Origin: Eledone cirrhosa
Lineage: Eukaryota
NCBI GenBank assembly: GCA_964016885.1
Contig: OZ024740.1
Span: forward strand, 143,406,001 to 143,470,000
Direction: 5' to 3'
DNA: 64,000 bases
Position numbers and translations under genes: made by a program. Below, in pieces: positions 10,215-53,570 of this stretch. The notes under the pieces were generated by a model, which saw only the letters and a list, made by a program, of their open reading frames with translations, was not told where the DNA came from and searched no databases. Within the stretch, counting starts at the first letter, position 1. Each line of letters begins with the position of its first letter.

Positions 10215-10500
10215 TATCCTGGATGCTGCGATTAGGACGAGAGCCATAGCTTCCGCAGCAGAGCGGAGTAAGACCCTCAAATACTCTGATCTGTCGGTCA
10301 GCTACATTTTTCAGCCTGTGGCTTTCGAGACGTTTGGGGGGAGTCGGACCCCTGACTGCGAGGTTCCTCTCTTCACTGGCGGCTCGCCTAATAGAGGTAA
10401 CTGGCGAATCTCGCGAGGGCGCTTGACTGTTCCAGCGCATTAGCCTCGCCATCATCCAAGGCAACACTGCGAGTGTGCTGACTTGCCTCAAAAAGTCATT
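10215..10500 (+). mobile_element. CRE-clade LINE 3' (restriction-like endonuclease) fragment; duplicate at about 57945-58230
   Basis: + frame reads AAERSKTLKYSDL..FQPVAFETFGG..LFQRISLAIIQGNTASVL. Confidence 0.75.
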
Positions 10501-11590
10501 AGAGAGGTTGCCCAGTACTCCTCGCGACGCTGCTGTCTTTTGCTCTGGTGTTGGCTCGGTTGTTCACCCCTTTCTTTACATTTTCTTTAATATTGCAACA
10601 TTAAAGGAATATATCCTTCTGAAAGAATCGCGAGCAATTTATAATGTTATCTAAGCATTTGTAATGTTATTATACTGTAAATTTAATTATATGCGCTGTT
10701 TATATCATATGTGTTCGTATGTTCACTCCATATGTCTAAACCGTGTATAATAACACAATAATATAAACTCATTGAACAAAAATAAAGGAAAGAAAAGGAA
10801 GGAAAAAAAGGGGGGGGGGGGTTCACCACCAAGTGTGATATTCGGCCAGACCTCACACTATATCAATCATGTAATTTTATTTTGTATATAAATATCATTA
10901 CAAATAATTAAAAAAGAGAAAGAAAGGGGAAAGTAAAAAAGAAAGAAAAAACACACATACATCTAGGACCACATACAACCAAAGGCAGGCGAACGAGGTG
11001 GACACGAAGAAGATTCAACACAATAAAATAAGGGCAACTAGTTATATTTATGGATTATACCTCTATTTCAAAGAATTAGAAGCCACGGGTAGAATTAATT
11101 TTTGAAGCAAGCCAACACTCTATTCGTGCTGCCTTCTAGCTTATTCTAAAGTCTATAGAAAACGTTTGCTGGTGTTGGTTTAAACAGAGCTCCTCGCTCC
11201 AAAAACTGTTTAAACCAAAACAAAAATCGAATAGATATTTCTGACGCTGTTTTATATGAATGCCCTCATTTATTATAATTCTTTAATGTAATTACAATTC
11301 AAGAACATGTTTGATGACCCTGTGATAAACAAGTGAAACTCAGAGTAACAAGACTCCCTATTTAGCCCTAATAAAATTAACATTATAACTCTACTTCGGC
11401 ATTGAGTACTCCTTTCTCTTAGTCGTCAACCACATAGGGATATATATATCCCTATGTCACACGAAGTCGTCTTCCTCACTGATTAACTTTTAAGTTAACA
11501 CTCTAATCGGTTGGGTTCGAATTTTAATAATTCCACAACTATATATCTATGTATAAATAAATAAATAATTATTTATTTATTTATTTATTA

Positions 11591-12265
11591 TCTATGTATA
11601 TATATAAAGTTGTAGTTCCTGTTTGTTTGTTTGTTCACGAACTCCTCATATGGTTTTCGAGATAGACCCCCTTAACCATATATATTCTGAAACTACATTG
11701 CCCAGGGTACTTGGATAAGTACATTTTAATCAACCCTCGTTGAAATTTTTTTCCTTTCGATTTATATGAGATTTAAACCATAGGTAAATGACAGGATAAG
11801 ATGCCTATTCACAAAAGTTTTGAATTGATATTTTGAAAAAAATTATTTACAAGAAAGAAAATAAGAATAAGATTTAATAATGTAATTTTGATTTGATATA
11901 TTACAAAAAATAATTGTTTCTACTTTTGGCACAAAGCCAACAATTATTCCAGTGCATTACTGGTACTTTATTTTATCAACCCCGTAAGGATGAAAGGCAA
12001 AGTTAACCTGGCCGGGATTTGAACTCAGAATGGCAAGGGCCGTAACTCTGCGTCAAAGCATGGCGTCCGACCCTCTACCGATACTGCCAATCCGATATTA
12101 CAAAAAATAATGTTTTCCAATTTTTCATGCATTACATTTTACATTGAGTAATATTGAAATGCAGAGTTTTTCTCCATAAAATTATATCACTGATTTAAAA
12201 TCAATCATCATTTTCTTACAAAAAAAAATGTGTGAAACGCAGCAAGGCGCGGGTAATTCGGCTAG
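11591..12265 (+). mobile_element. Non-autonomous Helitron-like element
   Basis: 5' TC, (GTTT)n near the 5' end, subterminal GC hairpin cgcagcaaggcgcggg, 3' CTAG, and an A^T insertion site. Confidence 0.7.
11911..12094 (-). mobile_element. SINE family 2, nested in the Helitron
   Basis: B-box GAGTTCAAATCC and GCCTTTCATCCTTACGGGG motif on the minus strand; 17-bp TSD ATATTACAAAAAATAAT. Confidence 0.8.
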
Positions 12266-12689
12266 TAAATATATATACTTCGTTTTTGTATTTGTTTTTC
12301 TAGATTTATTATCTGAAAACGTGTGTTGAAATAGATATTGTTATACTTTGGGAGGGTCATTCTGCCAATAAAAACATGCACCTCCTGGTTTTCATTTCAA
12401 TTTATTATATAAACTTTCAGTCAGTTCATTTAATAACTGGATGGTTGTTTAGGTCTTGAATTTCAAAGCTTTTCGGGCACACATTCTGTAACTTCAGTGA
12501 CTACCTTTGTTGTTATTTTGTGTCCCGCCTTTGTTCTGTCCTACAGAATTTTGTTTTTGTGAGCTGTGTACTTGGGCTGTGCATGTATTATATCTAGGTT
12601 TGTGTGTGTGTGTTTTTTTCTTTATACGTTTATTTACTTGTCACTAGTTGGTTGATTGTTCTATCTGTGTGTGTCAGTCGAGATGTCAT

Positions 12690-13400
12690 CCTCTGTTCAG
12701 TTAAGAAGGCCCCTCAGCTTTACCACTTTGCTTGGCAAGATTATCAGGAGCCCTCCTACTTCTCCTTCGGTGACCATTTCATCCTATCTGCCACAGGGGT
12801 CTGACGGTGACACGCTCAGACCAGCTGGGTATTGATGACGTCACCAAGATGGGAGTTGACCTGGATTTGAATGTCTGGTATCTGGATGATGCTTGTTTGG
12901 GGTGTTCTCCAGATAAGATTCATGGAACCGCAAAGACGATTGAGGAACTGAGTTGCAGGGGCTTTCATGTCAACAGTTCCAAATGCGAGCTCTGGTCCCT
13001 CAACCACCCAGCTTCACATCAACAGACTGTTGACCTGTTTACAGAGTCCTTCCCCTCTATCACGGTTCCTCCCTCATCAGCGTGGTGCTCTCTTGGAGCC
13101 CTAATTACTGACCAAACCTTCGAGTCCATCTTTCACTCTAAGTTGGCTAATCTTGAGCAAATTTTAAAAAATCTCGAAGCTTCACCAAAGTTTTTTTATA
13201 CTTATGAATTACATCAATTCCTAAATTGTTGTATTTCATCAGAATTAGCCCCTCTTACAAAATTTCGTCAACTCTCCAATACTTTGATGACTTAATATTC
13301 AATGAGCTCAAGGGCTTGGTCAATGTCTCTCTCCAGAATCCCACAACCAGGCTCCCTTGCCTAAACAGTTTGGAGGTCTGAGAATTGCTATCACTTGATC
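12690..13400 (+). mobile_element. CRE-clade LINE RT fragment; duplicate at about 60405-61110
   Basis: ILSATGV..., LNVWYLDDACL and VNSSKCEL motifs; degenerate. Confidence 0.7.
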
Positions 13401-13999
13401 CTTTTCTTACTCATGTCTGCGATGAACATGACTTATATTCCTTTCTGCATATACTGTAATGAAACAAAAAACGTTTTTCAGCTATGGCTAGCCACAATGT
13501 TCATGCAACACACATGAAAGTTGTTTAGATGAAGCAATGCCTGTGTTTGAAGCTTTTTTAAGAAAGACCTTGCACTGGGCCAATCCCACTCTGAACAACT
13601 GTGATAGGTATCCAGAAACAAGAACAGGTCAACATCATTGGCTGCCATTGAGTCACAGGTTTTACATCAGTTTTCCTTCTAGAATGATGTCCTAACAAGG
13701 CCTAAGGGTCTCACACTTCCGGTGGGCTAAACACACACTCAGGCACCAAACCGAGTACTCAAAGTACCTGCATATATATTATATTATGTATATATAAGAG
13801 AGTGTTGTAGTTTGGTTGAAGCATTGTCTGTAGTGTTATTTGAAGGCTATGACAATGCAAAATGAATGATAAATTTTTAAAATGAAAGCAAAGAAGATTT
13901 TTGTGTTACCTGGTAGTTTATTTATCAGTCTTTATATTTCAGGATTAAAAAAACAAACTAGTTCAGAGCTGTACATTTTGTTTGTTATAGAATCGCCAT

Positions 14000-15010
14000 C
14001 TTACTTTCTTTGTTTGGAAACGATGGTTTATTTATAACTGCCAGAAATGGTGGAAGATTGGCATTATATGTGGACTACTATATGTGTGTACATTTTTATG
14101 TCAAATATAGGTTTCCTCGTAGTGAAGGGCTGGAGAGAGCTAACTGTGTATCTAGTCCCTCCTTGCAGATCACCATGGTTATTTTTTTGCTGAAGTGTAG
14201 TAACTCCAGAAAGCAGGTGTTGGAGGAGGTCTTACATTTCCAGCATTTTGGACCCCGAAGACGACTTTTGATGAATGTTGGATATTCATTGGTCTCTAGG
14301 AAGTGTGCGGTGTAGGGGACCTGGTCCTCTGCCTTGCTGCATTTTTTTCCAGGAATGTGTGAATTTATTCCTTATGTATCAGGTTTTAGCACCAATGAGC
14401 AAACAGGTCTCTGCAATTGGTTTTTCTGTAGAAGTTATGGATGTCACCTTCTGTTATCCTGAGTTGGTAGTCAAGTAGAGACAGGGATCCAGGGCAGTTA
14501 TGGTTTTCTACGCTGAACTACATGTTATCATCCTTGTTTATGAACATGGTAGATATTCCATTGGCCTCTTCATCAGAGAATGTGAGTAAGAGTACGTCAT
14601 CTATGTATCTAGTGAAGAAGGTACAGGAGCGACAGGTGTTGAACGTTTGATGTTCTAGCTGGTCATGTAGGTGATGGCTAATAGGCCTGAAAGATTGGAT
14701 CCCATGGGTAGACTTGTTTGTTTGTAGGTGTGGTGATGGAAGGTGAAGTATGTGTTTTCTACAATACTGATAGGAGGTGGTGAGGCCAAAGTTGTATAGG
14801 TCGGAAGAAATGATGCAATCAGTCACAAGGTTGACCACTGGGTGAGTGGGTACTGATGTGTAGGAGACAACATTGAGGCTAAAGGTGTATCTGTTAAGTT
14901 TAAGTTGACCTGTATTTGTTAGGAAGTTGTCTTTGCCTACAGATATCAGCCTAGACTCTGTTAATGTGGTCTTCAATTTGGGTTGATGTTGTCTATTATT
15001 TCCGAAATAA
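14000..15010 (-). mobile_element. Decayed Penelope-like RT fragment; duplicate at about 61715-62725
   Basis: FSLNVVSYTSVP, FFTRYIDDVLL and SLSLLD motifs. Confidence 0.7.
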
Positions 15011-16061
15011 TCCATTGTTGCTGTGGTATTCAAATACCAGCTTGTTGTAGATGTCACAAGTGACAATGCAAAATTCTTTCCCTTAAATCACAAATTAAGG
15101 TACAAAGCAACGTATATATACAAAAATTATGTGTCAGTGTATAAACAGAAACTAAGTACATTTCATAATTTCTTTGTTTGTTTTTTGTTTTTTTTATTTT
15201 CAACATATAGATACAATAGAAAATAACTTTCTTCCTGTTTCCACCATTCATCTATGGTTCTTGTGATGTTTTGTGTTCTTCAGATTCACTTGTACAAGAT
15301 ATGTAATTCCTGTCATTTTCTCTGCTGAAAGATGGGGCAAACAATGCATGCAAAGACAAGGTGAACTCTCTAACTGTTAGAATATTTTATATGAATAGAC
15401 TACACAAAGTTGTGACAAAGTTCTTTGACATGTCTACTACTGCTGGTCCTGATTGTGGCAAAGCAGAAATAATATATTAAAAATTTCAAGATACCATGGG
15501 TCAACTGTGTTGGCTTGGGGGTAGACAATTGCTGCATAAACATGGGACAACCTAATTTAGTCATGTCTAGAATTCACAATATAAACAGTGCTTTAATTTT
15601 TATTAAGATACCCTTGTCATCTCATACATGACATTGCTTCCTTTCAGTCAAATTTAAAGATGTATGTGGTTTTTGACTTTTGCATTGATCTATTTTACTT
15701 TTTGGATAAGAGTACAAAATGAAAGGAGGAGTTAGAAGAGTTTTGTTGCTTTTACGATAGAGAATATAGGGGAATTTTAAAGAATGTCAACAAGGTGGTT
15801 AAGCCTAGAAATGGCAATTAATTGGGTTCTACTTTTTGATGCACTGCAGTTTTTTTCATATCCTGTGATAAGCATCTCAACTTTATATGTTTGAAAGCAC
15901 CCCTTCTAAACTCTCATGTTAAAAATATATTTACTATTCTATCAGGTTGTTCTGCCATCTTTCACCAATTTTAATAAAGACCTTTCCATTCACCTGCTAG
16001 ACTGAATTACATTCTTTTTTGGTAGAAACTTTTAAGTAAATTTATAAAGTCGAAAGCTATC

Positions 16062-16870
16062 TATCTATATATATAAAACTGAGGATGTGTGTGTGTATGT
16101 GCATACCCACATAACTTCCACAGTTTGCAACCGACTTTCTTCAAATTTGGAACAAACATGCATTATGTTCCCAGGAGTGTTTTGGACTCATAAAATTTCA
16201 AGTTTTTGTCTAATGTGGCCCCTAGATAAATATTAGTTGGTTGCATGAAAACTACACACATACATATACATCTAAAGAGAGAGAGAGAGAGTGAGATAGG
16301 CCGTTATACAGAGAGAGATAAAGATATTCAGATAGAGAGAGAGAATGGCGACGAACGCTGGTTTACACATGCACACACATAAAGAGAGAGATATCTGTGC
16401 GTTCTTGATTGTTCTTCATTCTGTAGAGAAAGATAGAGAGGGTATGAGAAAAAAGAGAGAGAGGGGTTCAGAAAGAAAGAAAGATTGTAGGGGGTTGGGG
16501 AGGGAAGAAAATGATAGCAGCGTTCAATAACTTTAACTTTTATTTATTTATTTATTCTTTAGAAACTAAAAAAAAAGAATCAATCTGTGGACACAGAAGT
16601 AAATATTTTTTTAAATGTTACAACCGAAGGAAACCAGGAAGATAATACTTTCGTTCGTGAAGATGTTCCCTGGCAATAAATGGGAAAAAAGCGAGGATAA
16701 TTATGTCGTTGTGTGGGGTGATGAGAACAATGTCTTGAAAAGACAAAAACACGTTTATGGTTTAAATGGAGACGTTAGACTTATATTCTATTTAGAATAA
16801 CTGGATGATTCTCGGCTCCGGAGTTTAAGAATAATGTAAATAAAGTTGTTAAACGGAAATGACAGAGGCT
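16062..16870 (+). mobile_element. Helitron/HINE-like non-autonomous element
   Basis: TCTATATATATAAA start, (TG)n tract and ccgactttcttcaaattt motif. Related pieces at about 3770-3930 and 39115-39245. Confidence 0.5.
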
Positions 16871-22267: not shown

Positions 22268-22663
22268 CATTTCTTGTATTCAAAGACAAACAGAAGAGTA
22301 AAGACTTCTGGTTATGAACATCAGAAAGAGTAAAGAACTTAGAGAAATTAATGGATGTTCATTGATTTCATCTGTCCAGTAAAATCGGCTGCAATAATAT
22401 ACAAACGGTGTAAAATATAAACTTCAGGTATCAACATTTACATATGACTCATTTTTATTTGAGTATTGACAATAAATCATCATCATCATTTAATGTCTAT
22501 TTTCCATGCTAACATGGGTTAGACGAGTTGTCCCATTTGAAGCAAGTCAGGTAAGATGTTACAGTGTTTCTCTCATTGATAATTCGACAATCACAAAAAT
22601 AATGTTTAAAAAAAAATCTTGTATTTTGAACTAAAATATTTTGCTTTTTCATTTTTTCAGATA

Positions 22664-22703
22664 ATGAAGATTCTACCACTACTCTATTTGCTGGCAATGA
22701 CTT
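22664..22703 (+). CDS. Coding exon 1 (signal peptide N-part, MKILPLLYLLAMT)
   Basis: Acceptor ttttttcag ends at 22660, ATG at 22664, donor GTAAGT at 22704, phase 1. Confidence 0.85.
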
Positions 22704-25700
22704 GTAAGTGATTTATCACCATCACCATCAACATCATCATCACCGTTTTACATCTGCTTTTCTATGCTTGCATGGGTTGGAAGTGTCTTTTCTAGCACAA
22801 CCTCCTTCTACTCATTGTGGTACTTCGTCATCTCTGGTACCTTCAGCAATTTCAGATGAGCACTCAAAACCTCTGCCCTGATCTGCCTTGGACGCTTAAT
22901 GCAGCTTTCTTCCACTGGCATTTGTGCATCCAAACGGAAGACGGGTAAATTCGTATATTCGGCCACAGGCTTCGAATGCAGTCAACTTAAAGTCGGAAGA
23001 TTTGATGGGTATTTGGTGATAAGCTGCCTTTAGATCTATTTTCGAGAAATACGTGTTTTGAAATTTTGTTGAGTAGGTCTTCGATTATGGCATTAGTGGT
23101 GTGTAACGATTTATAGTGCCTGAGTAGTCTATGACAAGCCTTTTTTTGTTTTCTTGATCTATTACGAAACACTGCGCTCTCCATGGGCTTCTGCTCTGTT
23201 GAATTATTCCAGCTTTAAGCATTCTGTCGATTTCCGTTTTAATGAATTGCTGATCTTTATTGTATTTTCGAGGAGGTATAGATAATGGTTTTAATTTTGT
23301 AGTATCGATTCCAGGCATTAAATCATATTCTTCACAATTCAGAGTTTGCATTGACATACATATCGTGACTGCTCTCATGTCCCCTGCATATTTTATTGTT
23401 AAAGACTTATGCCTTTTAAGTATATCAAGAGCCATAACTACTGGAGCAAAGAGTTTGTCAACCACCATTAGATCGATGTGGTATTCTCGGCCCTCCCATT
23501 CTAATGTTGTTTCAAATGTACCTCGTATTATGAGTTTACTGTTGTCGGCTAAAATTACACTCTTATTCTTAGTTTTCTTGAATTTACTTTGCCATTTCGA
23601 CAAGTGGTTCATGTCAATGAAAGACTTGTCTGAGCCTGTGTCAAGTAAACCTTCTGTTTTATGTGAATTGACATAAATTGTTAAAAAGTTTGTATTATGA
23701 TTCACGGAAGCAAGTTTATAGCAGGCAGCAAGATTACTGCCATCATTGGAGCCCTCGTTATTATTCAAGACTGCTGCGTGTTTTATCTTCTTTAGTACCT
23801 TCTTATTTTTAACAAAACATACTGTTGCCCAGTGGCCTTTCTTGTGGCAGAAATTGCAAGTTGAATTTTTTGCAGGGCACTCTGATTTTTGGTGATATGT
23901 ACTACCACACCAGAAACATTTTAATGAAGAAGCAGCGAATACGGGTTGTGACGGCGGTTGTATTGTTGTTGTTGACAGATTTTGTGCGTCTTCTATTGCC
24001 AGTTCTAATGTGAGAGCGGTTTGGAATGTTTTATCTAGATTTTTGAAACTCCTACCTGTATCTTGAATACATCACTAAACTCATTACCTGCTCTCATTTT
24101 ACTGACAGCACCTTTGTACATAGCTTGCATGGCTCTCATAACCCACTCATCTACACCCAGCTTCCTTAAGGACCACCAGATAACAGATCAATGTATAATT
24201 CTCTCTACAAGTATTAAATGTGTTATTATTCTAACAAAAGTAGAAATCCAGTTTTTCTTATCTGTAATTCAGCAACAAGCCTTTTAAGACCATTTTCCTT
24301 GCTATATTAAGGGTTATCCCTTCATGGCATCCTTTTTGAGGCAATATTTTACAGCCACATTCCCTTCCTGTTGAAACCTCTTTTAGTCACCTCTTACAAC
24401 ACACATGGTTATGTAAAATCTGAAAATATATTTTCATCTTTTATAGATATATCAATGGTCAATGCAAAGCTTAACATTGAAGCAAATGGTAATTGTATTA
24501 TAAAAATCTTTGATTTTAAAACCAGATGCTATCTTTTCTACTCTGCTTTCTGCTTCTTTCTCATAGTTAATAATCTTTAGTCACTAAATATATTTCCTCC
24601 TTTGAATGGGCAAAATTTCATCTTCAGAGCCCAAAAGACAATAATGATTATAAATATGATTGTGATTATAATATTGATTGTAGTAATACAAACTGTTATC
24701 TTAAAATATCAATTTGACAAAACTGTAGAAAGTAACTAAAGACTATTTAGTAAAAACAAATGTATATATATATATATATCAGCAGCAGCAGCAGCACTTA
24801 ACATCTATTTTCCCTACTTTTGAGGATTGAATAGGTCGTTATAGAATAAGTCAGTACTTAATTGAAGCCAATAGCCTCTCAACAAGTCAGGTATCACATC
24901 TCACTTACATACATTCCTGAAATGTACATGTTGTAACAGATGCATTTTATCATGGCACCAGCTCTAGAGGGGTTTTTGTACCCTTGATAAAACTGAAGAG
25001 GCTTCACAACTCTTTGTTGGCCCAGTTTTCTATGACTGAATACCCTTCCTATCACCAACCACCTTATAGAATGTACTGGCTGGTTTTCTCATGTTGCCAA
25101 CACTAGAGGGGTTTTCATGCCCTTAACACAACTGAAGCGTCCTCTTGACCCTTTTTTGGTGTGGTTTTTCCAGCTGGACGCCTCTCCTATCACTAACCAC
25201 CTTACAAAGTGTACTGACTGCATCTTTTGTGGCACCAGCACTAGGGCAGTAGTCACGGTGTAGTCCTACAGATGGAAGCTCTTCCTAACACTAACCACTT
25301 TGATGGGGGAGGTAAGAAGGATGATGTATATATGTGCACACACATACATATTACATATATGAATACATGTTCAGAATTCTGTACATTTTTGGAGACACTT
25401 GTGATCTGTACATAAGTTGGTATAACATGTGAGTAATGTAGCATGTCATCAGGGTCATGGTCCTTGAAAGACTTTCAGTTGTCTCCAATGGTAACATGAC
25501 ACAAGATGATTAAAACTTAAGGATCTGCTGCAATATCTTCCGTCTTCTTCGTCATTATGTGAGTTAATTTAACACCTGCTTTATCACTATTGAAGATTGA
25601 AGACAATGAAACGCATTTAGTCTGAATCCTCACCCTCAACTTTGCAATCTTTAAAGACCCTACTAGGAGGACAAACCTTCTGATGACATCACTGTCAAGG

Positions 25701-28317
25701 TCTGATGAACATGCAAGCTTCTCCACCACATCATAGTAGATCTCTCATTCAATTTCTCATTAGTTCTGATAATCTTTATTATATATTTTTACTTTTAATT
25801 TCCATTATAAATATATCAAAGCTGATAAAAACTTAAACTTAAATCAATAAATTTAATATATCTATTTCAGGAACAATTTGGTTAGGGGAAGAAATAACTC
25901 TTAAAACTCCAATCAGTGCTAATACTTCGGCTATTACATGGAAAAGTGAAGGAAAGAATATTGCATGTGACAAAAGTTGCGGTGGGAATGAAGACTACAA
26001 AATTACTAGGGGAAATGGTTCATCTACCCTTTGGATAAGAAATGTTTCTTGGCAATATCGTACATGGACAGTTATTGAAAATGATTTGGAAACTGATGAC
26101 TTCACTATGGATATAAATGGTAAGGAAATAATTTCTGATGATAATAATCATGGAGCAAGTATTTTATGGTGTTAAATCAAAGTCAACATTTGTATTTTAA
26201 TGATTTATTTTCTATCTTGAATTGTAATATTTCTGTAATATATAATAATGTGGGATAGTTAACTAAATGAACTGGTTAGATTAACCCCTATGTCCTTGTT
26301 CTAATATCTTGACCACATTTCCAATAATTAGGTGTCTATATTACCACTTAATTGTTATATGGTTGACAATCTTTCGGTATCTTCTAATATCTTAATCACA
26401 TTCCCAGTGGTCACTTATCTAATGTTATATAACCCCTATAAAATAAGCTAATTTGTCAGACTGCCATATTTGTGTTTAAAATGTTTGTTTTTTGAAATTC
26501 AGATGTTATGTTGATTTTATTTATTTTTTTTTTTTATATAGAATTTTAAATAATAACATTCTTATTCCTTTTCTATCTCTAAGAATGATTCCACATTCCT
26601 TAGTACAGATGTATTGGAAGGTTTTATCTCTGAATGGTTTAGAAATCATATAAACACAAATTTAGCAGTATGTCTTATTTTATATAGTTTTCACAGAATT
26701 TTGAATCTCATAACTTGTTTGGTTTTAATATTGCAGTGAACTTTGTATATTTTCTGTTAGCCATGTGATGTTATAGACTATTTCCAACTCTCCTTATTTT
26801 CTGATAACTTTTTCTTGGAGTTGAAAACTGTGAAAACAACCACACATTAAGAGAACCCGCTTAACATTTGCAGAGATAGGAGAAATCAATCTAAATATAC
26901 CTACAGACTAACAAAGAACAGTCTGTCTGAGGAACAATTTGTCCTCTATATATGATTATATACACTTACAGACTGATGAGGATTCTTTGTTACTAAAATA
27001 TACATAAAACAACTTTATACTGATATTATTCTTGTTTTTTTTCTTTCCTTTTTTCAATTCTTGAAATGACAAAGAAATTGGTCTTATTTTTCATTGATCA
27101 GAACCTTTTTCCAAATTCTCACTGCAAACAAATCTATTGTAACCAAATCTTGACAATACAGTGTGGGAATAAAGAATCTGTAAATTAAAAAAGTAGCTTG
27201 TGGTAGCAATAATAATAAAGGCTTACCTTGCTTCCAGAATTCACTTAGAGGAATTTTTAATAGCAGCTCTTTCATGCTAAACAGCTTAAAACACCACACT
27301 TTTCTGTGAGTCTCACACTCACATACACACGCAACCATACTTTGAAAAAAATTCTATGTTGAAAGAGGATTGGAGTTCTGTTCCTTCACTAACCTGGCAC
27401 TATTTCCCTCTCATACTTCTGGCTCTTAACCCACAATACTACATACATTTTAAAAGACGGTATCATAGAAGCAACTAATTCATTATCGCTGGCAGGGCCT
27501 ATGAGAGGGGGTCCAACTAGTACTTTGTTCCGGGGGCCCAAGACCTAAGAAGGCCCCACAGCAACCATGCAACATCCATTTTGAGAATTTGCCTGCTTCA
27601 GAGCAAAATTTCTCCTGGAAGCCCTGATCGCAGGCACAGTTTTTTCTTTGGCAATTTCAGTATTGAAAAGTCTTCTAGTAGATGTTTCTCAAATGAGATG
27701 GAGGTGGGTGCAAATATTCTAAAATGCTGCTATTCGCACCAGAAATCAACATTCTCTGTTAACTGTTCTCTCTCATTTTCTGCATCATCATCATTGAACA
27801 GCCATTCTCCCTGGTAGCAAGTGTTGGACAGGTTATTACAGAATGAGTCAGTGCTCAAGTAGAGCTACTGACCTCTCAGATGGGTCAGAGGCCCACATCG
27901 TGCTTACATATATTTCCATACTCTATAGAGTGCACTTTATTGTGGCGCCAACATTAGAAAGGTTGTCATGACTTTGACACTGCTGAAGAAGCCTCTCAAC
28001 CCTTTATTTGACCAGTTTTCTATGACTGAATACCTTTCCTATCACCAACCACCTTTCAAAATGTACTGAGTTTGTTTAATTAAGTCACCAACACTAGAGA
28101 GGTTGTACCTTTGACGTAACGGAAGAATTCTTTTGACTCTTTTTAACACGGTTTCTATGACAGGATTCTCTTCCTATTGCCAACCAAGTCACAGGTTGTA
28201 CTGGGCGCATTTTTTGTAGCACCAACATTAAGGAGGTTATTGGTAATTGAGTTAACTGAAGATCCCTCTCTACTCTATGGGAGGGGATGTTAAAAAGGAT
28301 GGTAAGTATAATGCATG

Positions 28318-28350
<33 letters not shown>

Positions 28351-31300
28351 TTGTATGTATAATATGTACACATGATATATTTTGCAGTGAAGCCAACGAT
28401 TCATTTTGAAATCAAACCAAATTGTGACTACAAAATAAAAACGACTTGTTCTAAACCCAAGACAAATATAACATGTCTCTACGATGTAAGTAAATGGAAT
28501 TGGGTTTTTACCTGTTTCTCTTCCTATCAACTTGTCTGGGGTTCTTGTTTCTGAAGAGAGGTGCATCCTCATAAGCTAGAGAGAGTACTTTGCTGATCCT
28601 GGGTCACAATAGTTAATGTACATGAGTAGTGTCTAACCTTGCGAAGGCTGTGGTCACCAGAGCAATTAAAGTGCTCAAATGTGGCAAGGCCTCTGAGGAA
28701 GATGAAATTGGGCCTGAGGTTTAAAACCTTAAATAGAAAAGGTATGTTCTGGCTGACTCATGTGTTAGGTGGCCTGAATCTCTGTGAAGGCACCAAAGCA
28801 CTAGCAGCAGGGAGTGATACAATTTTAGAAGAAGTGAGATTGCTCTAATTATTTGTTGTTAACACAATATAAACTATAATAAAGTAAGAAGCGCGGGATT
28901 GCTTAGTAAAATAAGTTGGTTTACTTTGAATAAATAATGAATGAATATTACATAATTTATCTACTAAATTTCGTGGCTGTTCATTAAATATATTTTATTA
29001 TTTATTTAAAGATTCGCTTCTTTAAAATTTTCAAATGTAAACACTTCCGATCGCTTAAATAAATACTCATATATTTCCTTCACTAATTTTCTCCTAATGC
29101 AGTTTATATATAGTATCGTCTTTTTTAATGTATCATGGATTACATTACTGATTAAATAAGACAGTGTAACACAGTCTTCGTTCAATTTCTGTGTATATTG
29201 TCAATTACGATTTTATTTGATGTATCATATCTACATGCATATATACTTGCGTAAAATATCAATATACACACTAAACATACTAGCAGAAAACCACCCGAAG
29301 GGTGGTTTTTCTGCTAGTTTATTTAATGAATATGATTTACAGAATAAACAAATCAATAGAAATTAATTAGAGAAAGAAAAAACAAAAAACAAGAGAAGAT
29401 GGGTACACTCAATTGCATGCTACAACAGGGAATGTTCGTATTTCCCTAAAACATTTTGAGGTAATCAAGACACTCATGACATTGCTGCTGGAATAGCCAA
29501 GCACTCTTATGAGCATCACCTGATACTTCAGTAAGATGAGCTGCCAACAATGACAAGAACCTTATTGTCAGCAACCCTGCTACCACCAAATATTTTGAAT
29601 GCTTCAGGCTGAAACATGGATTACCAATAATTCACTGTATTTCAGAATTTTATTTCGTTTGGCTATGGTTGCAGTGACCCCCATTTTTTCTGCAGCATCT
29701 AATATATGAGGAGCAAAAGCATCACTGACTGTGGTGCCCCATAAGATGCATCTACTTTTAGCCTGAGGGCAAAGAGTAAGACGAATGAGCCTCTTTCCAT
29801 TAACCCTGGACAGTCCATTTCTAACAGAATTTGGAATTTCAAAATATTTTCCACTTACTATAGCTAATCTTCCAGCTCTAATCATATCATCTAGATAGAA
29901 AAATATATTTACTATTATCGATGGGGGATGGGGCTGGAGTGTTGTAACACTTTTCTGCTTGTTCGAGTTTAGGGTGGGGGGAGGTAGTGGATTAGCTAAC
30001 CTGCTTCTGCTGCATGCATTCCACTTGCATGAGAGGCGAGTTCTTCATATTACAGAATTTTTCTCAGTCCTGGATCATCTCCTTTATGGGATTTAACTGC
30101 ATGAGGTCGGCCTTTATGACACCATCTCATCACAGAATTTCCTAGGTCTTCCTCTTCCAAGGGTTCCTTTGACTTCAGGAGCCCTACATTTCTTTATGCA
30201 GCTGTCATCCTTCATACATATTACATGTTCATACTATCGCAATTTCTTCTCATGAACACTACACATGATGCCTCTTATGCCCAGCTTTACTCTTAGCTCA
30301 TTGATATTTCATCGCTCTTATATATTACTATTATACATTCATCGGAGCATGCTCATCTCATTTCTTTCCAATCTTTGTAAGTCCTCCATACACAAAGCCA
30401 AAGTCTAACTACAATGTAGCATTGCTGTTCGTACACAAGCAGCATACAGTCTGCCATTCACTCTGAGGCAGAAACCTTTTGTAGCTAGCAGTGACAGTAG
30501 CTCCCTGACTTAACTTTTTCCAACCAGTCCTTATTCTGGCTACTGTACTTTCAGAACACCCATTCCCACTACGAATTTGATCCTCTAGATAGCAGAAACT
30601 ATTGACTATTTCTAGGAAGCCCTCTGAACATTTAATAGGGCGTTTCATGTGTGCTCTTGTTACTTACTGCTTCTGTGCATTGGTTACATACAAAGCCTAC
30701 ATTTTTAACCTGGTGTAAAACCAAACTGCATCTTGTCTATGTTAATTCTATCCTGAATTAGTTGTGCAATAACTATTTCAGTAACTTTCATGACTTGGTT
30801 CATCAACTTGATGCCTCTTTAGTTTCCTCTGTCTAGTGTGTCTCCTTTGCCCTTGATGCTGCTATGCCAGTCATTAGGTATGACACCATCCTGTATTACT
30901 TGATTTACTATGCACATAGTGTGTGCCCCACTCAACCAGATACTTTTGGCATCTGAGCTACTATCCCTGATGGCCCAGCTGCTTTACTTGTCTTCATATC
31001 CTTCATTGCCTTACTTACTACACAGTTGCTAACTTGGCTCACCAGACCCTCTGTTGAATCTGCTTGAGGCAGGCCTTCTTTCTTCTCAGCAACAATGAGG
31101 GCAAGTCAACCACTGTCATTTTGGACACAATTCTCCCCAACAACATCTTGATTTTTCCCTCACATCTTGCAATCCTGAACACCTCATGCCTATGGTCCCC
31201 ACAGTGCAGAACATGCACACATTTCTTGTTTTCTGCTTTCCTCCTTCCTAAGTATACCTGTCACTTGGCTTCTCTTCTACCATCTTGATACTGTTCTCTG

Positions 31301-34300
31301 CTTCCCCCATTTTGCCAATCTTTCCATGTCTGTTTCTTAATTCTAGCTGTCTCATCTACTCTTCTATTCCACCACCATGTCACTCTATGGCATCCAGGGG
31401 CCTTGTTTTGAAGTATATGGGGACAGGGAAGGTTCTGTGGTATGAGTTAATTGGATTTGGTGCCTGGGATGTAGTGAGTTTGCATGGCATTTCAGTCATA
31501 TTTCTGAACATGGTGTGGTACTTCAGCCCCTTTTCTAAAATGATCTACCTCATTTATATCGCTTATCCAGATTGATCAGACAGAAAACTGTTGGTGGTGG
31601 AAAGGGGATGGAAGAGAGGTTTCTGATGAGGTTTAGGGAAGAGGAGGAGAATAGAATTTAGGAAAAGAAAGATGGCAAACATGGATAAAATAGAACAGGA
31701 CAAGAGAGATCTGAAGAAGTAAATTTTAGGGAAGAAAGATGAGATAGATTGAAAACAGCAAGCAAAAATAAAATGAAATATTTATGAACAATACAAGAGA
31801 GAGAGTGAGAAATGAATTGTAGGGAAGGAAGAAAAATGAGAAATATATAATGTATATGGCAGAATTTGCAGAAAAGAGGAGAATAGGATTTATGAAAAGA
31901 GAGATAGCAAACATCACTAAAAATAGAATATTCATAAGATATAAGCTTTAAGGAAGAAAGATGAGATAAGAAGAAAATATATACTGTATATACTCAAATA
32001 TAAGCCACCACCACCCCTATTTTATGTCTGAGAAATGAGCAAAAATCCAACTGATCAACACATTATGTTTAGATAGAATGGTTTTGAAATTCTCGTGATT
32101 ATAAAATATAGTTACAAAGTTTTAATATTTTGATGTTTAAAATATAGTTTTTGTTTCACACCTCCATTGGGTAATGAGTTTCCATTACGCTAAGTTTCAA
32201 CAAGTTTCTCAAATGTTTGTTTACTTCTGGCCACTCACATGCTACAAGTACTTTGAAAGCAAGAAATCAACTAAGAAAGCATTGTATTAGAATAGAAGAA
32301 GGAGGGGGTGACAGCAAGTGAGAGATGGCAATAAAATAATATTAGAAGAAAGATTTCAATTTTACAGAACATTGAAAGAAAAAGTATTATTAAGTCAGAG
32401 AAAAACATGTATGTGTGTGCACATGTGCATATGTAATTCTGTATAAGATATTTATGTATTAAAAAATTCAAATTATAAAACTTTGTTGGAAATATTTTCA
32501 TGGGAATGCATAAAAAACACTAATGATGATGTAAATGAAGCAAAACAGTTTCATTGTAAAATAATCACTCCATATATTTTAACACCTTATTTCTGGTGAA
32601 AATCAGCAAAATATAAGCTGACACCCATTTTACCATTGATTCTTTTTGTCACATATTTATTAGCTTATATTCAAGTATATATGGTATATGTGACTGTGTT
32701 TGAAGGAAAAGGTGAGGGCTTACAAGAATTAGTCACATAGTGTTATGTATATGCGGATGAAGTACAGAGGATATTATATGTAATATATTCTTGATTTGTG
32801 TAATGTTTATATTTTGGTTTAATGAAATTAAGCTATATCGTCAAGCACTTATTTCAGAATATTTGCAAGCTCTTTTAGTAATGGGGAATGAACTTTGACA
32901 CGGGATTGGGGATCAAGTTTCATGTGACAAGGCCTAGTTTCAAAAAGGGATTTATATCATGTTGGTATCCTCTATATAGAAATATGTATAATGAGTGTTC
33001 TACCACATTCAGACTATAATCACTGTACTATGTCCAGCTCCACCACTTGTTCTGTTACCAATATAACAGAACTTATCAATAATATAGAAGATATCATTGT
33101 AAGCCTTGCATGTGTCATAGTTGAAATTATGGTAACTTTCCAGATTGTCTCAATAATGTTATACCTTATGACTGTTTGAACAAGCTAAGTAACTTAAATA
33201 GAAATAAATTAAGTATTAAATGTAATAAAGTAAAAGTTTAGTCCTTGAAAATTAGTTACTGGGGAAAAATCATTTGAGCCAGTCAAAATCTCACAAAAAC
33301 TTTGAAATTCACTTTTATCATTTATTTATTGTTGTCAAACTTTTCCTTGCATTGATTATGACCAAGTTACTGACACAGTTTCACTGATAAATATAAAATG
33401 AATTTAAGTTTCTTAAGTCTCAACACAAGCTCAATCAAGTCACATACCAACCAAGTACAACTCTGAAATTAATAATGATTTCTTTAAATATTCTTCTTTA
33501 TTTTACTTTCTTTCTCAGAAAGATCTGAAACTTACACACGAATCTGAACCTTGTAATAATCGAAGTAGTAAATTAAACCCTCCTGATGTAAAGTTAATAC
33601 ACCAATCAACTACACCTGGGAAAATCAAATGTGATGTCCATCTTGATAGTCTTTTACTGTTTACTGTAAATAAAGAATTTGAATGTAAGGGCATGATTTT
33701 ATCATTTTTATAAATAATATTGGAAATTGTTTTCAAATGTTCTTTGTTTAGATATATTCACTTCTTAGAATCTGCTCCCACCATCACTGTACTCCCCCAA
33801 TTCCACCCCTTCCACTCATCACCCTGTCAAACCCCAGCACACCTATCTTATACCCATAACATATTCTCTTCACCTTTTTACTTCCTCACATCACCACTTG
33901 AAGCCAGGCATGGAACCTATCACTCTCCACCTCTTGTCACCTATGATATACCTAATATCCTTTTTACATCCTTCATCGTCTCTCCCCAAATAAGTTGAGT
34001 GATTGCATAAATGCTGCATCATTGGCTCTAAAGGACTGTAGCATTACTTCTTCACATGAAGGTAACTTAGACAAACTATAACCACTTGATTTCTTGCAGC
34101 TATTAAATAAATAACAATATATTGGTTTTCTTTTGCAGGCACTAGCTCTTCAGTGAAGCCTCTTACTACAATGACAGAGGATATTATTACAATGACACCT
34201 TTTACAATAGCGTCTATTTCGGGTAATAGTGCAAAATCATGCATTTCCAGAATTTGGATGGAACTTATTATTGGGATCATCATTACTGTTATCTGTTTAA

Positions 34301-34308
34301 GATATTAA
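22664..34308 (+). CDS. Spliced gene, join(22664..22703,24447..24488,25871..26119,28388..28485,33519..33684,34139..34308): predicted GPI-anchored two-Ig-like-domain cell-surface glycoprotein, 254 aa
   Basis: All five introns are GT-AG with pyrimidine tracts, and the phases (1,1,1,0,1) join into a 765-nt stop-free frame: MKILPLLYLLAMTYISMVNAKLNIEANGTIWLGEEITLKTPISANTSAITWKSEGKNIACDKSCGGNEDYKITRGNGSSTLWIRNVSWQYRTWTVIENDLETDDFTMDINVKPTIHFEIKPNCDYKIKTTCSKPKTNITCLYDKDLKLTHESEPCNNRSSKLNPPDVKLIHQSTTPGKIKCDVHLDSLLLFTVNKEFECTSSSVKPLTTMTEDIITMTPFTIASISGNSAKSCISRIWMELIIGIIITVICLRY*. The Ig-fold and GPI calls are motif-based inference. Confidence 0.85.
22930..24050 (-). mobile_element. Gypsy/Ty3 gag-pol fragment in an intron of the Ig-like gene
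   Basis: Zn knuckle C..C.KKGHW..VC, protease LLDTGS, and RT start SPWRA..KRLVIDYS. Confidence 0.85.
24447..24488 (+). CDS. Coding exon 2 (42 nt; signal cleavage VNA|KL)
   Basis: ttttcatcttttatag acceptor and GTAATT donor, phase 1-1. It is required: splicing exon 1 directly to exon 3 would create TGA. Confidence 0.8.
25871..26119 (+). CDS. Coding exon 3 (V-like Ig domain)
   Basis: tctatttcag acceptor, GTAAGG donor, 249 nt open, phase 1-1. Ig-like motifs GEEITL, ITW and STLWIRNV. Confidence 0.88.
28388..28485 (+). CDS. Coding exon 4 (second domain, N-half)
   Basis: tttgcag acceptor, GTAAGT donor, phase 1-0; VKPTI...TCSKPKTNITCLYD. Confidence 0.85.
29460..29890 (-). mobile_element. CRE-like RLE endonuclease/3' fragment (related copy at about 41760-42150)
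   Basis: GLSRVNGKR..LTL.P..RC..W.TTVSDAFAP..AAE..K..KY. Confidence 0.6.
30050..31400 (-). mobile_element. Highly decayed RTE family A LINE
   Basis: EIVNSFCYL..GCSESTVARIRTGWKK and further homologous pieces. Confidence 0.8.
33519..33684 (+). CDS. Coding exon 5 (second domain, C-half)
   Basis: Long pyrimidine tract ending tttctcag, GTAAGG donor, phase 0-1, open frame containing GKIKCDV. Confidence 0.85.
34139..34308 (+). CDS. Coding exon 6 (S/T stalk and GPI-type signal, stop TAA)
   Basis: ttttcttttgcag acceptor. S/T-rich stalk, small residues SGNSA, then hydrophobic IWMELIIGIIITVICL, and only RY before the stop. Confidence 0.85.
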
Positions 34309-34724
34309 AAAGTAATAGATAGAGATGGTATGTATTATCCACTATTTTTTTGCATGAATTTGATGGGTTTTCACCCTCACAGCTTACTTTCAACTTGCTC
34401 CAACAATTTGAGATCAGCATCTCACCACTTCAGTCAAAGTCTTCCTTAGTCTTCTCTTCCACATCTTTCTTCCTTGGATTCTCTTAGTTCTTCTTGACCC
34501 AACGATCATTATGCATCAGCATCACATGTCCTTACCAGTGCAATCTTCTCTCTTGCACATTTGATTCAACTTATGCCCAGTTTTTCACTCAATTCATTTG
34601 TGCTTCATCATTCATGCATACTAACATTACACATTCTTAAAGAGCATGTTTGATTTGTTTCTCTGCAGTCTTCACACATTCTCTGTATTCACTGCCCATG
34701 TCTTACTACAATGCTGTATCACAC

Positions 34725-35590
34725 TTAAGAGACGTGCAACCAAGCAAATACCCTCCATCAGGCATCTACCATACTCTGAATGCCTTGCTTCCCTGGGCAT
34801 GGATACATTGAAGCTCCGACGTCTGGCAATTGACTTGGTAAACACCCACAAAATTATTAACCATCTGAGCACCTTTTTGATTTCCATGTGTCTAACACAC
34901 ATGGGCATGCCTACAAAGTCAGAAAACAGCACAGCTCCCATGACTTTCGGAAAAAATTTTTCATGCTCAGAGTTGCTGAAGCATGGAACAAACTCTGCAT
35001 CAGTTGTTAGCTGCCGAGACACAACATGCTTTAAAACCTCCATGCTTCCTGAAATTTGCCAACACTATACTTGATATCCCTCCTCCATACACATGCACAC
35101 ATATATATCATGACTCATACACTGTTCACTTTCCTGGCATTTGTACATCATTCTATGTACTATAAATGCACCTTTGATGAATCGTAGTGCACCTGAGCAC
35201 TGTACACAATAAATTCATTATTATTATATATATATAATGAAATTATTGTGTGGAGTGCTCAGGTGCACTACAACTCGTCAAAGGTGCATGTATAGTACAT
35301 AGAATAATACACAAATGTCAGTGAAGTGAATAGTGTATGAGTCATGATATATATGTGTGTATGTGTATGGAGGGGGAACATTAGGTGTAGTGTTGGCGAA
35401 TCTCGGGAAGCATGGAGGCCTTAAAGGATGCAGTGTCTCGACAGCTAACAACCGATGCAGGTAGTTTGTTCCATGCTTCAGCAACTCTGAGCGTGAAAAA
35501 ATGTTTTCGAAAGTCATGGGAACTGTACAGTTTTCTGACTTTGTGGGCATGTCCACATGTGTTAGACACATGGAAATCAAAAAGGTACTC
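34725..35590. mobile_element. Two CR1-type LINE 3' ends, tail-to-tail (inverted repeat centred about 35230)
   Basis: RRATKQIPSIRHLPYSE.L on +, and TCGHAHK..RKHFFTLRVAEAWNKLP on -. Arms are about 350 bp. Confidence 0.85.
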
Positions 35591-35748
35591 AGGGTTGTTA
35601 TATGCAGGAATCATACAATCTACGCTTCAGATGTAGAGAAAAACCCTTGTTATCAACAAATATTTCAGTGTTACCTCTTTTCTCACTATTACCTCAGACA
35701 AAGAAGAATCCATCTTTAAAAATTTATAAATAAATTTTTTTTAATGAA

Positions 35749-42721: not shown

Positions 42722-43258
<537 letters not shown>

Positions 43259-45329: not shown

Positions 45330-45810
45330 GCCTTCTCTATGTATGCATAAATCTAATTATGTGATTTATATGAGAGAATGATTTACCACAGATGTCAGTG
45401 ATGTGGCTTCTCTCCTGTATGAATGCATTTGTGAGTAACAAGAATGATCCCCCACAGATATCAACAATATGGTTCCTCACCTGTATGAATACGCCTACGA
45501 TTAGTTAAGTGACCAGTTTCAGAGAATGATTCCTTACAGATATCACAGTGATATGTATTTCCTCCTGTATGAATACATTTGTGTTATTATTTATTTTAAA
45601 GAATGATTTACCACAGATATCACTGATATAATTTCTCATTTGTATGAATATGTTTGTGTTTAAACAGGTTACTTTTTCAGAGACGTATGTTTTATAAATA
45701 TAACATTGGCATGATGATTTTCCTATCTCTATCGGTATGTCTTCTGAAAAGAAACAATCCTTTAAGTTTCTCATTGAATTAATTTTCATATAATTTCCTT
45801 TTCCTACCAC
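45330..45810 (-). pseudogene. Second, more decayed C2H2 zinc-finger pseudogene
   Basis: DICGKSF and TGEKP remnants with many indels. The upstream sequence is similar to that of the first copy. Confidence 0.75.
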
Positions 45811-46289
45811 AACATTTGGATGTTTTTCTTGTTTTCTTTTTTATATATTCCTACAGTGATGGAAATATGTTTATGAATTGTGTTCTTTGTCGGTATCTGA
45901 AGATGTTTGCAAACTACTTTGTAAATCTATCACAGTTCAATTAAAATGCAAAATCATTTTGAACTGTAAGAAAAGAAATGTTGCTTTTAACCTCAGTTTA
46001 GAAAAATATTTCACAGTATTTCTACTAGAGATTTATATACCTGTCGTGTATAGCATCTTCTTAAAGTCTTCACAAGATGGTATGTATTAATAATTTCAGA
46101 ATTTTGAACTTCTCAGAGGAAATGAGCAATGAGTGCAACAAGTGGTGAGATGTTTTGGAGAGGAGAAACCAAAGCCATGGAAGCATGGAAAAGCAGACTT
46201 AAAAATGATGACAATATATACATGATTGGTTCCATTGTATGGCACCTGGGGGAGGTATTTCCTACTATAACTCCACGATGACCAATGCT

Positions 46290-51703: not shown

Positions 51704-53570
51704 GGTCTATAGATGTGCTAGAAATAACGGCTACATCAGCTAAGCAGGGGGAACATCAGGTCTATATGTGTTCTAGAAATAGCAGCTAAAGGGGGGGGGG
51801 GCGTTATGGTGGTCCGTAGGTGTGCTAAAAATAGCAGCTACATAAGCTAAATAGAATGAACCTCATGGTGGATGATAGGTGTGCTCCAAATAGCAGCTAA
51901 ATAGCCTTATGGTTGTCCATAGGTGTGCTCGAAATAGCAGCTAAGTAGGAGGACCCATATGGTGGTCCATAGGTATGCTAGACATAACAGCTAAAAAAAC
52001 TTCATGGTGGTCCAAGTGTGTGCTAGAAATAGCAGCTGCATCAGCTAAAAAAGGGAATCTAATGGTGGTCTATAGGTGTACTAGAAATAGCAGTTAAATA
52101 GGGGGATCATTATAGTGGTATATAGGTGTGCTACAAATAGCACCTAAATAGGGGAACCTCATGGTGGTCAATAGGTGTGCTAGAAACAGTAGGTAAATAG
52201 CGGAACCTCATGGGAGTACATAGGTGTGCTAGAAATAGCAGCTGCATCAGCTAAACAAGGGAATCTCATGGTTATCCAAAGGTGTACTAGAAATAACAGC
52301 TAAATAAAGGGAACTTCATGGTGAACTGTGTCCTAGATATATTAACTAAATACGGGGAACCTCATGGTGTTCCATATGTGTGCTAGAAATAGCAGCTATA
52401 TAGGGGAACCACATGGTGATCCATAGGTGTGCTAGAAATAGAAGCTGCATCACGTAAACAGGGGGAATCACGTGGTAGTCCATAGTTGTGCTAGAAATAG
52501 CATCTAAGTAAAGGGAACCCATGGTGGTCTATAGGTGTTCTAGAAATAGCAGCTAAATTAGGGGAACCTCATAGTGGTCCATAGTTGTGCTAGAAATAGT
52601 AGCTAAATAGAGGGAACCTTATAGTGGTCTATAGCTGTGATAGAAATAGTAGTTAAATAAGAGGAACCTTATGGTGGTTCTTAGGTGTGCTAGAAAGGGC
52701 TGTTACATCAGCTAAGCAGGAGGAACCTTATGGTGTATGTAGGTGTGCTAGAAGGAGTAGCTAAATAAAGAGAACCTCATGGTGATTCATAGGTGTGCTA
52801 GAAATAGCAGCAAAATAGGGGGATCCTTATGGTGGCCCATATGTGTGCTAGAAATAGCAGCTAAATACGGCGATCCTCATGTTGGGCCACACGTGTGCTA
52901 GAAATGGGAACTACACAGTGGTTCATAGGTGTGTTAGCAAAAGCATCTAAATTGTTGTAACCCTTTTAGTGGTCGATAGGTGTGCTAGAAATAGCAGCTG
53001 CGTCAGGTAAACAGGGGAATATCATGGTGGTCCATAGGCGTGCTAGAAATAGCATCTAAATTAAGGGAAACCCATGGTGGTCTATAGGTTTCCTAGAATT
53101 AGCAACTAAAAAGGGGGAACTTCATGGTGGTCCATAGGTATGTTAGAAATAGCAGCTAAATAGGAGGAACCTTATAATGGACCATAGATGTGCTAGAAAT
53201 AGCATCTACATCAGCTAAACAGGAGCAACGTCATGGTGTCCATAGCTGTGCTAGAAATAGCAGCTAAATAAGGTCAACCTCATATGTATCCATTTGTTGT
53301 GCTAGAAATAGCAGCTAATAGGGGGAACCTCATAGTGGTACCTATGTGTGCTACAAATAGTAGCTAAATAGGAGGGACCTTATAGTGGTCCATATCTGTG
53401 CTAGAAATAGCAGCTTGGTGGAGAGGAACCTGATGATGGTCCATGGGTGTACTAGAAATAGCAGCTACATCAGCTAAGCAGGTGGAACTTAATGGTTGTC
53501 CGTAGGTGTGCTAGAAATAGCGGCAAAATAAAGTGAACATCGTGGTGGTCCATAGGTGTCCATAGGTGTC
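51704..53570. repeat. Minisatellite, about 49-bp monomer with an about 10-bp-longer variant
   Basis: Consensus GGTGGTCCATAGGTGTGCTAGAAATAGCAGCTAAATAGGGGAACCTCAT, repeated roughly 35-40 times. Confidence 0.95.

Follow-up and report, generated by a model that had tools for sequence, protein, structure and literature searches.

A 64,000-nucleotide stretch of the Eledone cirrhosa genome (GenBank assembly GCA_964016885.1, contig OZ024740.1, positions 143,406,001 to 143,470,000; hereafter the window) contains a six-exon gene that belongs to a multi-locus gene family of octopods. The gene is spliced in one public sequencing run, and in that same run it gives two isoforms, one with and one without a membrane-proximal stalk. 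Its product is predicted to be a glycosylated protein with two immunoglobulin (Ig) domains that is likely held in the membrane by a glycosylphosphatidylinositol (GPI) anchor. On balance we consider it probable that this protein acts like CD48 and CD58, as a recognition ligand that does not itself signal, with its binding being predicted by analogy.

The six exons are separated by five GT..AG introns (1743, 1382, 2268, 5033 and 454 nt, in phases 1, 1, 1, 0 and 1) and join in phase into an open reading frame of 765 nt, encoding 254 amino acids and a stop codon, as the initial annotation of the window had proposed (Table 1). An AG acceptor precedes exon 1, so that an upstream non-coding exon is likely. 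Exon 3 was found in four public runs (X1–X4), which come from one study and two samples and whose kind is unrecorded. Contigs of X4 join introns 2, 3 and 5 exactly, with GT..AG ends, and intron 4 is supported by two X4 contigs in which a 12-letter loose end at 33519 agrees with the last letters of exon 4 at all but one position. None of these joints was present in X1–X3, whose contigs continue through the introns, and X4 therefore behaves as RNA. It represents a different sample from the DNA-like runs, with no matching DNA. The joints were read from 15 listed of about 1100, leaving the repeat at 22710-22748 out of the comparison; the joint of intron 1 was absent among these 15, and this intron is supported by the sequence and by homologs with a signal peptide. 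Origin of the X4 joints in a retrocopy is unlikely, since X1–X3 lack them and X4 has two alternative 3' forms.

Table 1. Features of the gene and of its surroundings, in positions of the window.
Feature	Position	Strand	Description	Evidence
Exon 1	22661..22703	+	ATG at 22664 (coding 22664-22703); signal peptide codons 1-13; acceptor at 22661	Sequence
Exon 2	24447..24488	+	Rest of the signal peptide (probable cleavage site after residue 20); domain 1 A strand	X4 joint 24487/25870
Exon 3	25871..26119	+	Ig V/I-type domain 1, residues 28-110; W51, C60-x3-C64 loop, W93; B and F Cys absent	
Exon 4	28388..28485	+	First half of domain 2; C123, C131, C140	X4 joint 26118/28387
Exon 5	33519..33684	+	Second half of domain 2; C155, C181	X4 loose end at 33519
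Exon 6	34139..34308	+	C199, serine/threonine-rich stalk ~200-227, candidate omega sites G227/N228, hydrophobic tail, stop	X4 joint 33684/34139
Allele-dependent alternative acceptor	34221..34223	+	No AG with the window's G	A in X4 and in the second contig of each of X1–X3
Long interspersed nuclear element (LINE) frame	7638-9371	+	577-aa reverse-transcriptase frame; endonuclease and C-terminal pieces flanking	RVT_1, E 9e-31
Direct repeat	10053-16285 and 57782-64000		6.2 kb, offset 47,729 nt; continues past the window end	99.3% identity
Long-terminal-repeat retrotransposon-type frame	23088-24071	-	328 aa, antisense within intron 1; zinc knuckle, aspartyl protease, reverse-transcriptase start	Protease E 6e-4
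Inverted repeat	34865-35592		728 bp, like a miniature inverted-repeat transposable element; shortly 3' of the stop codon	87% identity
C2H2 zinc-finger repeats	42725-43200 and about 45350-45840	-	Repeat unit 84 bp; apparently degenerate, with broken frames and missing Cys/His	
Satellite	52042-53559		50-bp unit, about 30 copies	
Second inverted repeat	56980-57455			

Profiles of the homologous family, which include the window protein itself, matched exons 3, 4 and 5 separately (E 5e-29, 4e-13 and 3e-11). No further family exon was found in the 64-kb window, where the profile scans gave these three exons only below E 0.01. A blastp search with the spliced product gave an alignment with homolog residues 1-199 at 34% identity.

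The second isoform results from a joint at 33684/34223 that was seen in X4 only, with 25 letters on its short side. The contig with this joint has a depth of 480 and that of the long form 559, values that do not measure expression level. Use of this acceptor skips 84 nt in frame and yields a protein of 226 aa, from which the 28 residues of the stalk are gone and in which N228 and the tail are kept. The difference at 34221 on which it depends is synonymous, and it is the A that creates the acceptor. A genomic deletion behind this joint was rejected, as it was not seen in X1–X3 and the skipped stretch reads GT..AG with A at 34221. In the three DNA-like runs the A-bearing contig accounts for 19%, 38% and 33% of the summed depth; a share below the half expected for a single-copy heterozygote is a weak hint of three copies. 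The function of CD48 in T cells is controlled by the length of its ectodomain (PMC2195552, in excerpt), which makes it plausible by analogy that the stalk switch is functional.

Apart from 34221, all coding differences between X4 and the window among those listed (with 135 further ones beyond these) change an amino acid: K56R, I58L, A59V and S78L in exon 3 and D143G in exon 4. The first three are neighbours on the C-C' hairpin of domain 1, part of the likely binding face, with I58 and A59 at positions where the family has a near-invariant Y and E. Exon 3 has 5 differences in 249 nt, compared to 23 in 6693 nt of listed intronic and untranslated sequence (P about 0.002-0.003 if bases are independent). 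The differences may be allelic or come from a tandem paralog, and the two A-to-G sites, at 25955 and 28484, may instead be products of RNA editing. RNA recoding is known from cephalopods.

The product contains ten cysteines and all six N-glycosylation sequons named by the initial annotation, at N27, N45, N76, N85, N137 and N157. For the proposed signal peptide, a scan by the (-3,-1) rule lists cleavage after residue 20 as one of 3 candidates. At the other end, residues 201-229 are rich in serine and threonine, and the hydrophobic C-terminus has only 2 residues beyond its hydrophobic run, in line with the predicted stalk and the predicted lack of a cytoplasmic tail. E240 is followed by 12 uncharged residues, and two more residues end the chain. 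Our rule-based scan found small-residue triplets at G227 and N228, which are 27 and 26 residues from the C-terminus, and with these as candidate omega sites a GPI anchor is likely. Alternatively, the tail could be a short transmembrane helix or the protein could be shed or secreted. Many family members are clearly transmembrane, the 19-residue hydropathy window peaks at 2.18 in the window protein, and prediction readily confuses GPI signals with transmembrane helices (PMC10084454, in excerpt). However, the peak window includes R236 and E240, and the run is followed by just those 2 residues. Three homologs (P0017, P0050 and P0060) have similar tails of 9-12 uncharged residues that are even more polar, whereas in other members 21-27 uncharged residues precede a short cytoplasmic tail. 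We regard this alternative as unlikely.

Domain 1, encoded by exon 3, was modelled (pLDDT, the predicted local distance difference test, 94.0; predicted template modelling score, pTM, 0.83) as a seven-strand Greek-key beta-sandwich with the B, C, C', D, E, F and G strands of the Ig superfamily; in the region of the C'' strand the model has two single-residue bridges between C' and D. The best match in a fold search had a Z score of 10.6 (root-mean-square deviation, rmsd, 1.8; 81 of 82 residues aligned), CD48 and CD58 scored 9.6 and 9.4, and V-set and I-set chains were tied. Foldseek gave no match for domain 1 alone at E <= 0.001 (best 1.6e-3), and all rows listed were Ig chains by title; the Pfam I-set model reached E 0.0068, under its cut-off. 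For domain 2 the fold comes from a model of the homolog P0017 (residues 18-198; pLDDT 77.6, pTM 0.60), in which the second domain is seven-stranded. The claim of two Ig domains therefore stood, directly for the first domain and through a homolog for the second. With both domains of P0017, the best fold matches were nectin-3 D1D2 (Z 11.6, rmsd 3.4, 179 residues aligned), Neph1 (11.4), Rst (11.3), CD200RLa (11.1), PD-L1 and CD58 (both 10.8) and CD48 (10.4), with butyrophilins and CD2 also within 10.4-11.6. These values are too close together to choose a family.

The first domain is non-canonical, as had been claimed. Using motif mapping, not coordinates, we compared it to the eight residues listed as V-set features in PMC9546547 (in excerpt). 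Gly16, Trp41 and Leu89 are present as G33, W51 and L81. The canonical B-F disulfide (Cys23, Cys104) is absent, with T40 and V95 in its place, and C60 and C64 are the only cysteines of exon 3. The Arg75-Asp98 salt bridge and the Tyr102 corner are absent as well, with D69, Y90 and W93 at these positions. Among 60 family domains the B position is I in 44, T in 12 and V in 2, the F position is F in 56, V in 2 and Y in 1, and 58 have Trp in the Tyr-corner position. The C60-x3-C64 loop comes after the C' strand. The Trp and both Cys were found in 60 of 60 domains of the alignment selected by this motif, as follows from the selection, and in at least 90% of domains in an unselected alignment. In the C' strand, the Y and E that are at least 90% invariant in the family are replaced by I58 and A59 in the window protein.

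Most rows of an 18-row alignment retain the six cysteines of domain 2. In P0015 the first and last of these are both missing, which fits a 123-199 pair; motifs suggest 131-181 (canonical B-F) and 140-155 as the other pairs, and in domain 1 a 60-64 pair is expected.

When exon 3 was compared by phmmer to 1.84 billion representatives, 29 proteins matched. Of these, 20 belong to the family, 19 carrying the name Octopus or Argonauta and one being unnamed. Eight long matches (P0007, P0013, P0016, P0018, P0022, P0026, P0027 and P0029) were rejected as repeat-driven, judged by Pfam content and not by taxon, and a snake Ig protein (P0023, E 2e-4) was dropped at an hhalign probability of 3%. A profile search gave 34 matches among 4468 candidates, all of them family members and all named Octopus. 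Neither search, both being of limited reach, gave matches in squid, cuttlefish or other molluscs; some unnamed mollusc clusters in the Atlas with feature scores of 0.92-0.94 may be distant kin.

Going by LOC identifiers, O. sinensis has at least 16 loci and O. bimaculoides at least 9. Of the former, 8 lie on a single 21.3-Mb contig, and several on small contigs may be duplicates. Ten O. vulgaris family proteins are encoded on one 34.6-Mb contig, and the family also occurs in Argonauta. The members consist either of 1-5 tandem copies of domain 1 and a transmembrane or GPI-like tail, or of domain 1, domain 2 and a tail. The window protein shows the signature of the latter subgroup (W, CxxxC and W in domain 1, six Cys in domain 2). 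Its identity to two-domain members is 28-38% over both domains and at most 40% in domain 1. A domain 1 tree placed it in the two-domain clade (support 99/94) on a long branch, with no one-to-one ortholog; its grouping with Argonauta there may be due to long-branch attraction. The domain 1 motif and the six-Cys domain 2 are shared with members in O. bimaculoides (LOC106868859, LOC106876057/58/65), O. sinensis (LOC115211991, LOC115210431, LOC118763661, LOC115225115) and Argonauta hians (GAB1602944/GAB1602345), and LOC106876057/65 and LOC118763661 also share the GPI-like tail. The window protein differs from these homologs in the C' strand described above.

All homologs are annotated as 'uncharacterized' or 'hypothetical', except the zinc-finger-fused model P0019. 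No Pfam family reaches its cut-off in exon 3 or in 10 family members. Longer proteins containing exon 3 were not found among 12 candidates of a word-indexed search, nor were long or fused forms (798-2275 aa) among 7995 candidates, the latter being weak evidence. No description of the family was found in the literature that could be reached, subscription journals and bioRxiv supplements, which may hold these genes, lying outside it. Six LOC identifiers gave no match in full text, and six gave none in 3 supplements of PMC9712504 (one PDF being unreadable). The main text of a 2025 review of invertebrate members of the Ig superfamily (IgSF) does not mention octopus, cephalopod or squid (PMC11999971). 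The family is thus apparently undescribed, and homologous gene models are already in public annotation without a name. This agrees with the initial annotation, which had predicted a lineage-specific, uncharacterised family and recognised no ortholog: all named homologs are octopod, and sequence searches found no ortholog in a named family. It had overlooked that the gene is one of multiple loci of a family that also includes transmembrane and tandem-domain proteins, and it had not noticed the stalk-less splice form. Of the neural, immune and gamete contexts that it had offered, the analysis found nothing that favours one over the others.

Some family members show further variation. LOC106868859 and its O. 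vulgaris counterpart (P0006/P0032/P0051) have three repeated C-terminal hydrophobic segments, possibly duplicated transmembrane exons. Two isoforms of LOC106876065 (P0060/P0064) run from the signal peptide directly to domain 2, without domain 1, and domain 1 copy number varies in the isoform series of LOC115225115.

For a role as recognition ligand we propose the following mechanism. The signal peptide would be removed after residue 20 and a GPI anchor added near G227/N228. Domain 2, with three likely disulfides, and the O-glycosylated stalk would keep domain 1 off the membrane. Its GFCC' face, with the C' strand stapled by the CxxxC loop, would bind a partner on another cell in trans; CD2 and CD58 bind via their AGFCC'C'' face (PMC2191747, in excerpt). 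The partner would most likely be a transmembrane member of the same family, supplying any signal. Turnover of paralogs and changes in the C-C' hairpin would retune specificity, and use of the allele-dependent acceptor would provide a shorter form nearer to the membrane.

Several observations weigh against this proposal. The fold matches are tied across many Ig families and give no pointer to function, and the Ig fold of domain 2 in the window protein is predicted only by way of the P0017 model. If the four clustered changes in exon 3 are counted as one event, the ratio becomes 2/249 (P about 0.2) and the excess is gone, and two of the X4 changes, being A-to-G, could be RNA editing. P0050 and P0070, an ortholog pair from O. 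vulgaris and O. sinensis, hardly differ (branch lengths 0.006 and 0.004), which argues against hypervariability in that paralog. Finally, the cytoplasmic tails in the family are short and a loose Tyr motif occurs in the last 40 residues of only 5 scanned proteins, so that a signalling partner within the family is not evident. A homodimer prediction for domain 1, run with no alignment input, gave no answer (score 0.00).

The long branches, the loss of one-to-one orthology and the clusters of paralogs on single contigs also speak for a receptor or decoy that faces pathogens on the skin, in mucus or on hemocytes. Its domain 1 would bind microbes or parasite ligands instead of octopus cells, and turnover would reflect an arms race. 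Most descriptions of IgSF proteins in molluscs concern the recognition of pathogens (PMC11999971, in excerpt). Nevertheless we consider this function possible at most: lectin and fibrinogen domains are absent, no such Pfam family was found in the 10 members scanned, and the two-domain shape fits pairs of adhesion molecules or co-receptors.

Somewhat less probable again is a neural wiring code, in which paralogs would be expressed in combinations on neurons and bind each other like Dprs and DIPs. Dprs likewise have two Ig domains and a GPI-like tail (PMC10084454, in excerpt), and the fold matches include chains of Rst, Neph1, SYG-1 and Dpr-DIP. However, according to the same excerpt the Wirins, to which Dprs and DIPs belong, are conserved across bilaterians, whereas the octopod family had no matches outside octopods in the two sequence searches and its domain 1 lacks the canonical cysteines. 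We weakly favour a surface role in self/non-self recognition or host defence over a conserved neural wiring role.

It is doubtful that the gene is a strongly diverged ortholog in a known family, such as nectin/fasciclin-3, Kirrel or the CD200/B7-like proteins. Families of this type gave the best two-domain fold matches, and Atlas feature matches of 0.88-0.89 include fasciclin-3-like and C2-set_2 clusters. Against this, the fold matches are all tied, with identities of 9-21%, neither exon 3 nor the 10 members scanned match any Pfam family above its cut-off, and Atlas scores below 0.9 are leads only. Least probable of all is a gamete or mate-recognition protein with a role like that of Juno, Bouncer or Izumo: a fast-evolving, lineage-restricted, GPI-like surface protein suits this class, but many paralogs with tandem domains are atypical of it.

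A more far-reaching form of the recognition-ligand proposal, which we regard as speculative and improbable, is an octopod self/non-self code of clustered, fast-turning GPI ligands and transmembrane receptors with allele differences in the C-C' hairpin, convergent on both CD2/SLAM and Hydractinia Alr. A single synonymous base would then turn on the stalk-less isoform and so change the height of the synapse. We know of no described histocompatibility system in octopus. Self-avoidance between skin and suckers has been ascribed to a chemical in the skin (PMC9339708, in excerpt), and nothing in this analysis ties the gene to it.

Lineage-specific Ig expansions are a known theme, and C2H2 zinc fingers are one of the expansions usually discussed for octopus. 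Protocadherins are the other gene family usually named there (PMC10084454, in excerpt). To these is added a surface Ig family that lies under the Pfam cut-offs, was missed by annotation pipelines and numbers at least 16 loci in a single species. Its members are testable candidates for cell recognition, and ligand-like GPI members can be screened against receptor-like transmembrane members. The allele-gated deletion of the stalk offers a natural experiment in ectodomain height. A self/non-self code, if true, would give molecular access to allorecognition in octopus, and perhaps to self-avoidance between skin and suckers; if the function is plain adhesion, the family is one more lineage-specific IgSF expansion.

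The gene lies among repeats, with many further LINE fragments throughout the window (Table 1). The 6.2-kb direct repeat could be the start of a tandem duplicate that holds a second gene copy at about 70.4 kb; alternatively it could be a composite repeat, or the assembly could have placed one haplotype twice. The O. sinensis model P0019 has a C2H2 repeat similar to the one at 42.7-43.2 kb. In this model zinc fingers are fused to domain 1 of the family, so that genes of the two kinds may also lie side by side in other octopods.

When compared to known systems, the best two-domain fold matches were with nectin, Neph/Kirrel/Rst, butyrophilin, B7 and CD200R proteins (Z 10.8-11.6, 169-183 residues aligned), which share the V plus C-like arrangement. 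Receptors of the nectin, B7, butyrophilin and Kirrel type are transmembrane, with a cytoplasmic domain and a canonical V disulfide. In contrast, the window protein has 2 residues beyond its hydrophobic run and no B/F Cys, and identity to them is 9-17%. The Dpr/DIP/IgLON proteins (Wirins) likewise have two Ig domains and a probable GPI anchor; they are pan-bilaterian (PMC10084454, in excerpt), and the window protein differs in lacking the canonical cysteines. No named Wirin was among the sequence matches, and Dpr-DIP chains scored Z 9.7-9.8 in the two-domain fold search.

Hydractinia Alr proteins are likewise lineage-specific, clustered, hidden from Pfam and recognised by fold, and their domain 1 also lacks both pin cysteines. 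They have tens to hundreds of alleles with allele-specific homophilic binding (both from PMC9546547, in excerpt), and the window gene was compared in at most two samples. No sequence link to Alr was found. Unlike what that excerpt describes for Alr, the window protein keeps the C-strand Trp, appears to lack the Arg-Asp bridge kept by most Alr domains, and has no Fn3-like (fibronectin type III-like) region, transmembrane helix or tail with immunoreceptor tyrosine-based activation or inhibitory motifs (ITAM/ITIM).

The initial annotation had likened the protein to CD48/CD58 and to Dprs. This held for the layout and not for the fold, where CD48 and CD58 (Z 9.4-10.8) were not ranked over other Ig families and neither they nor Dprs came closer than nectin, Neph/Rst, butyrophilin, CD200R or PD-L1. 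CD2/SLAM showed no significant sequence link (CD2 E 0.019, out of register), and the snake protein dropped above was the only vertebrate Ig match. The window protein further differs from CD48/CD58 in its CxxxC loop, the Trp for the Tyr corner and the stalk, and domain 2 has six cysteines versus four (two disulfides) in CD2/SLAM. CD48 (SLAMF2) combines a V domain lacking the canonical disulfide, a C2 domain with an extra disulfide, and GPI (PMC12084948, in excerpt). The window protein likewise has a V-like domain without the canonical disulfide, a predicted second Ig domain with extra Cys, and a GPI-type tail with no cytoplasmic part. In layout it probably functions as CD48 and CD58 do; by sequence it falls outside the CD2/SLAM family.

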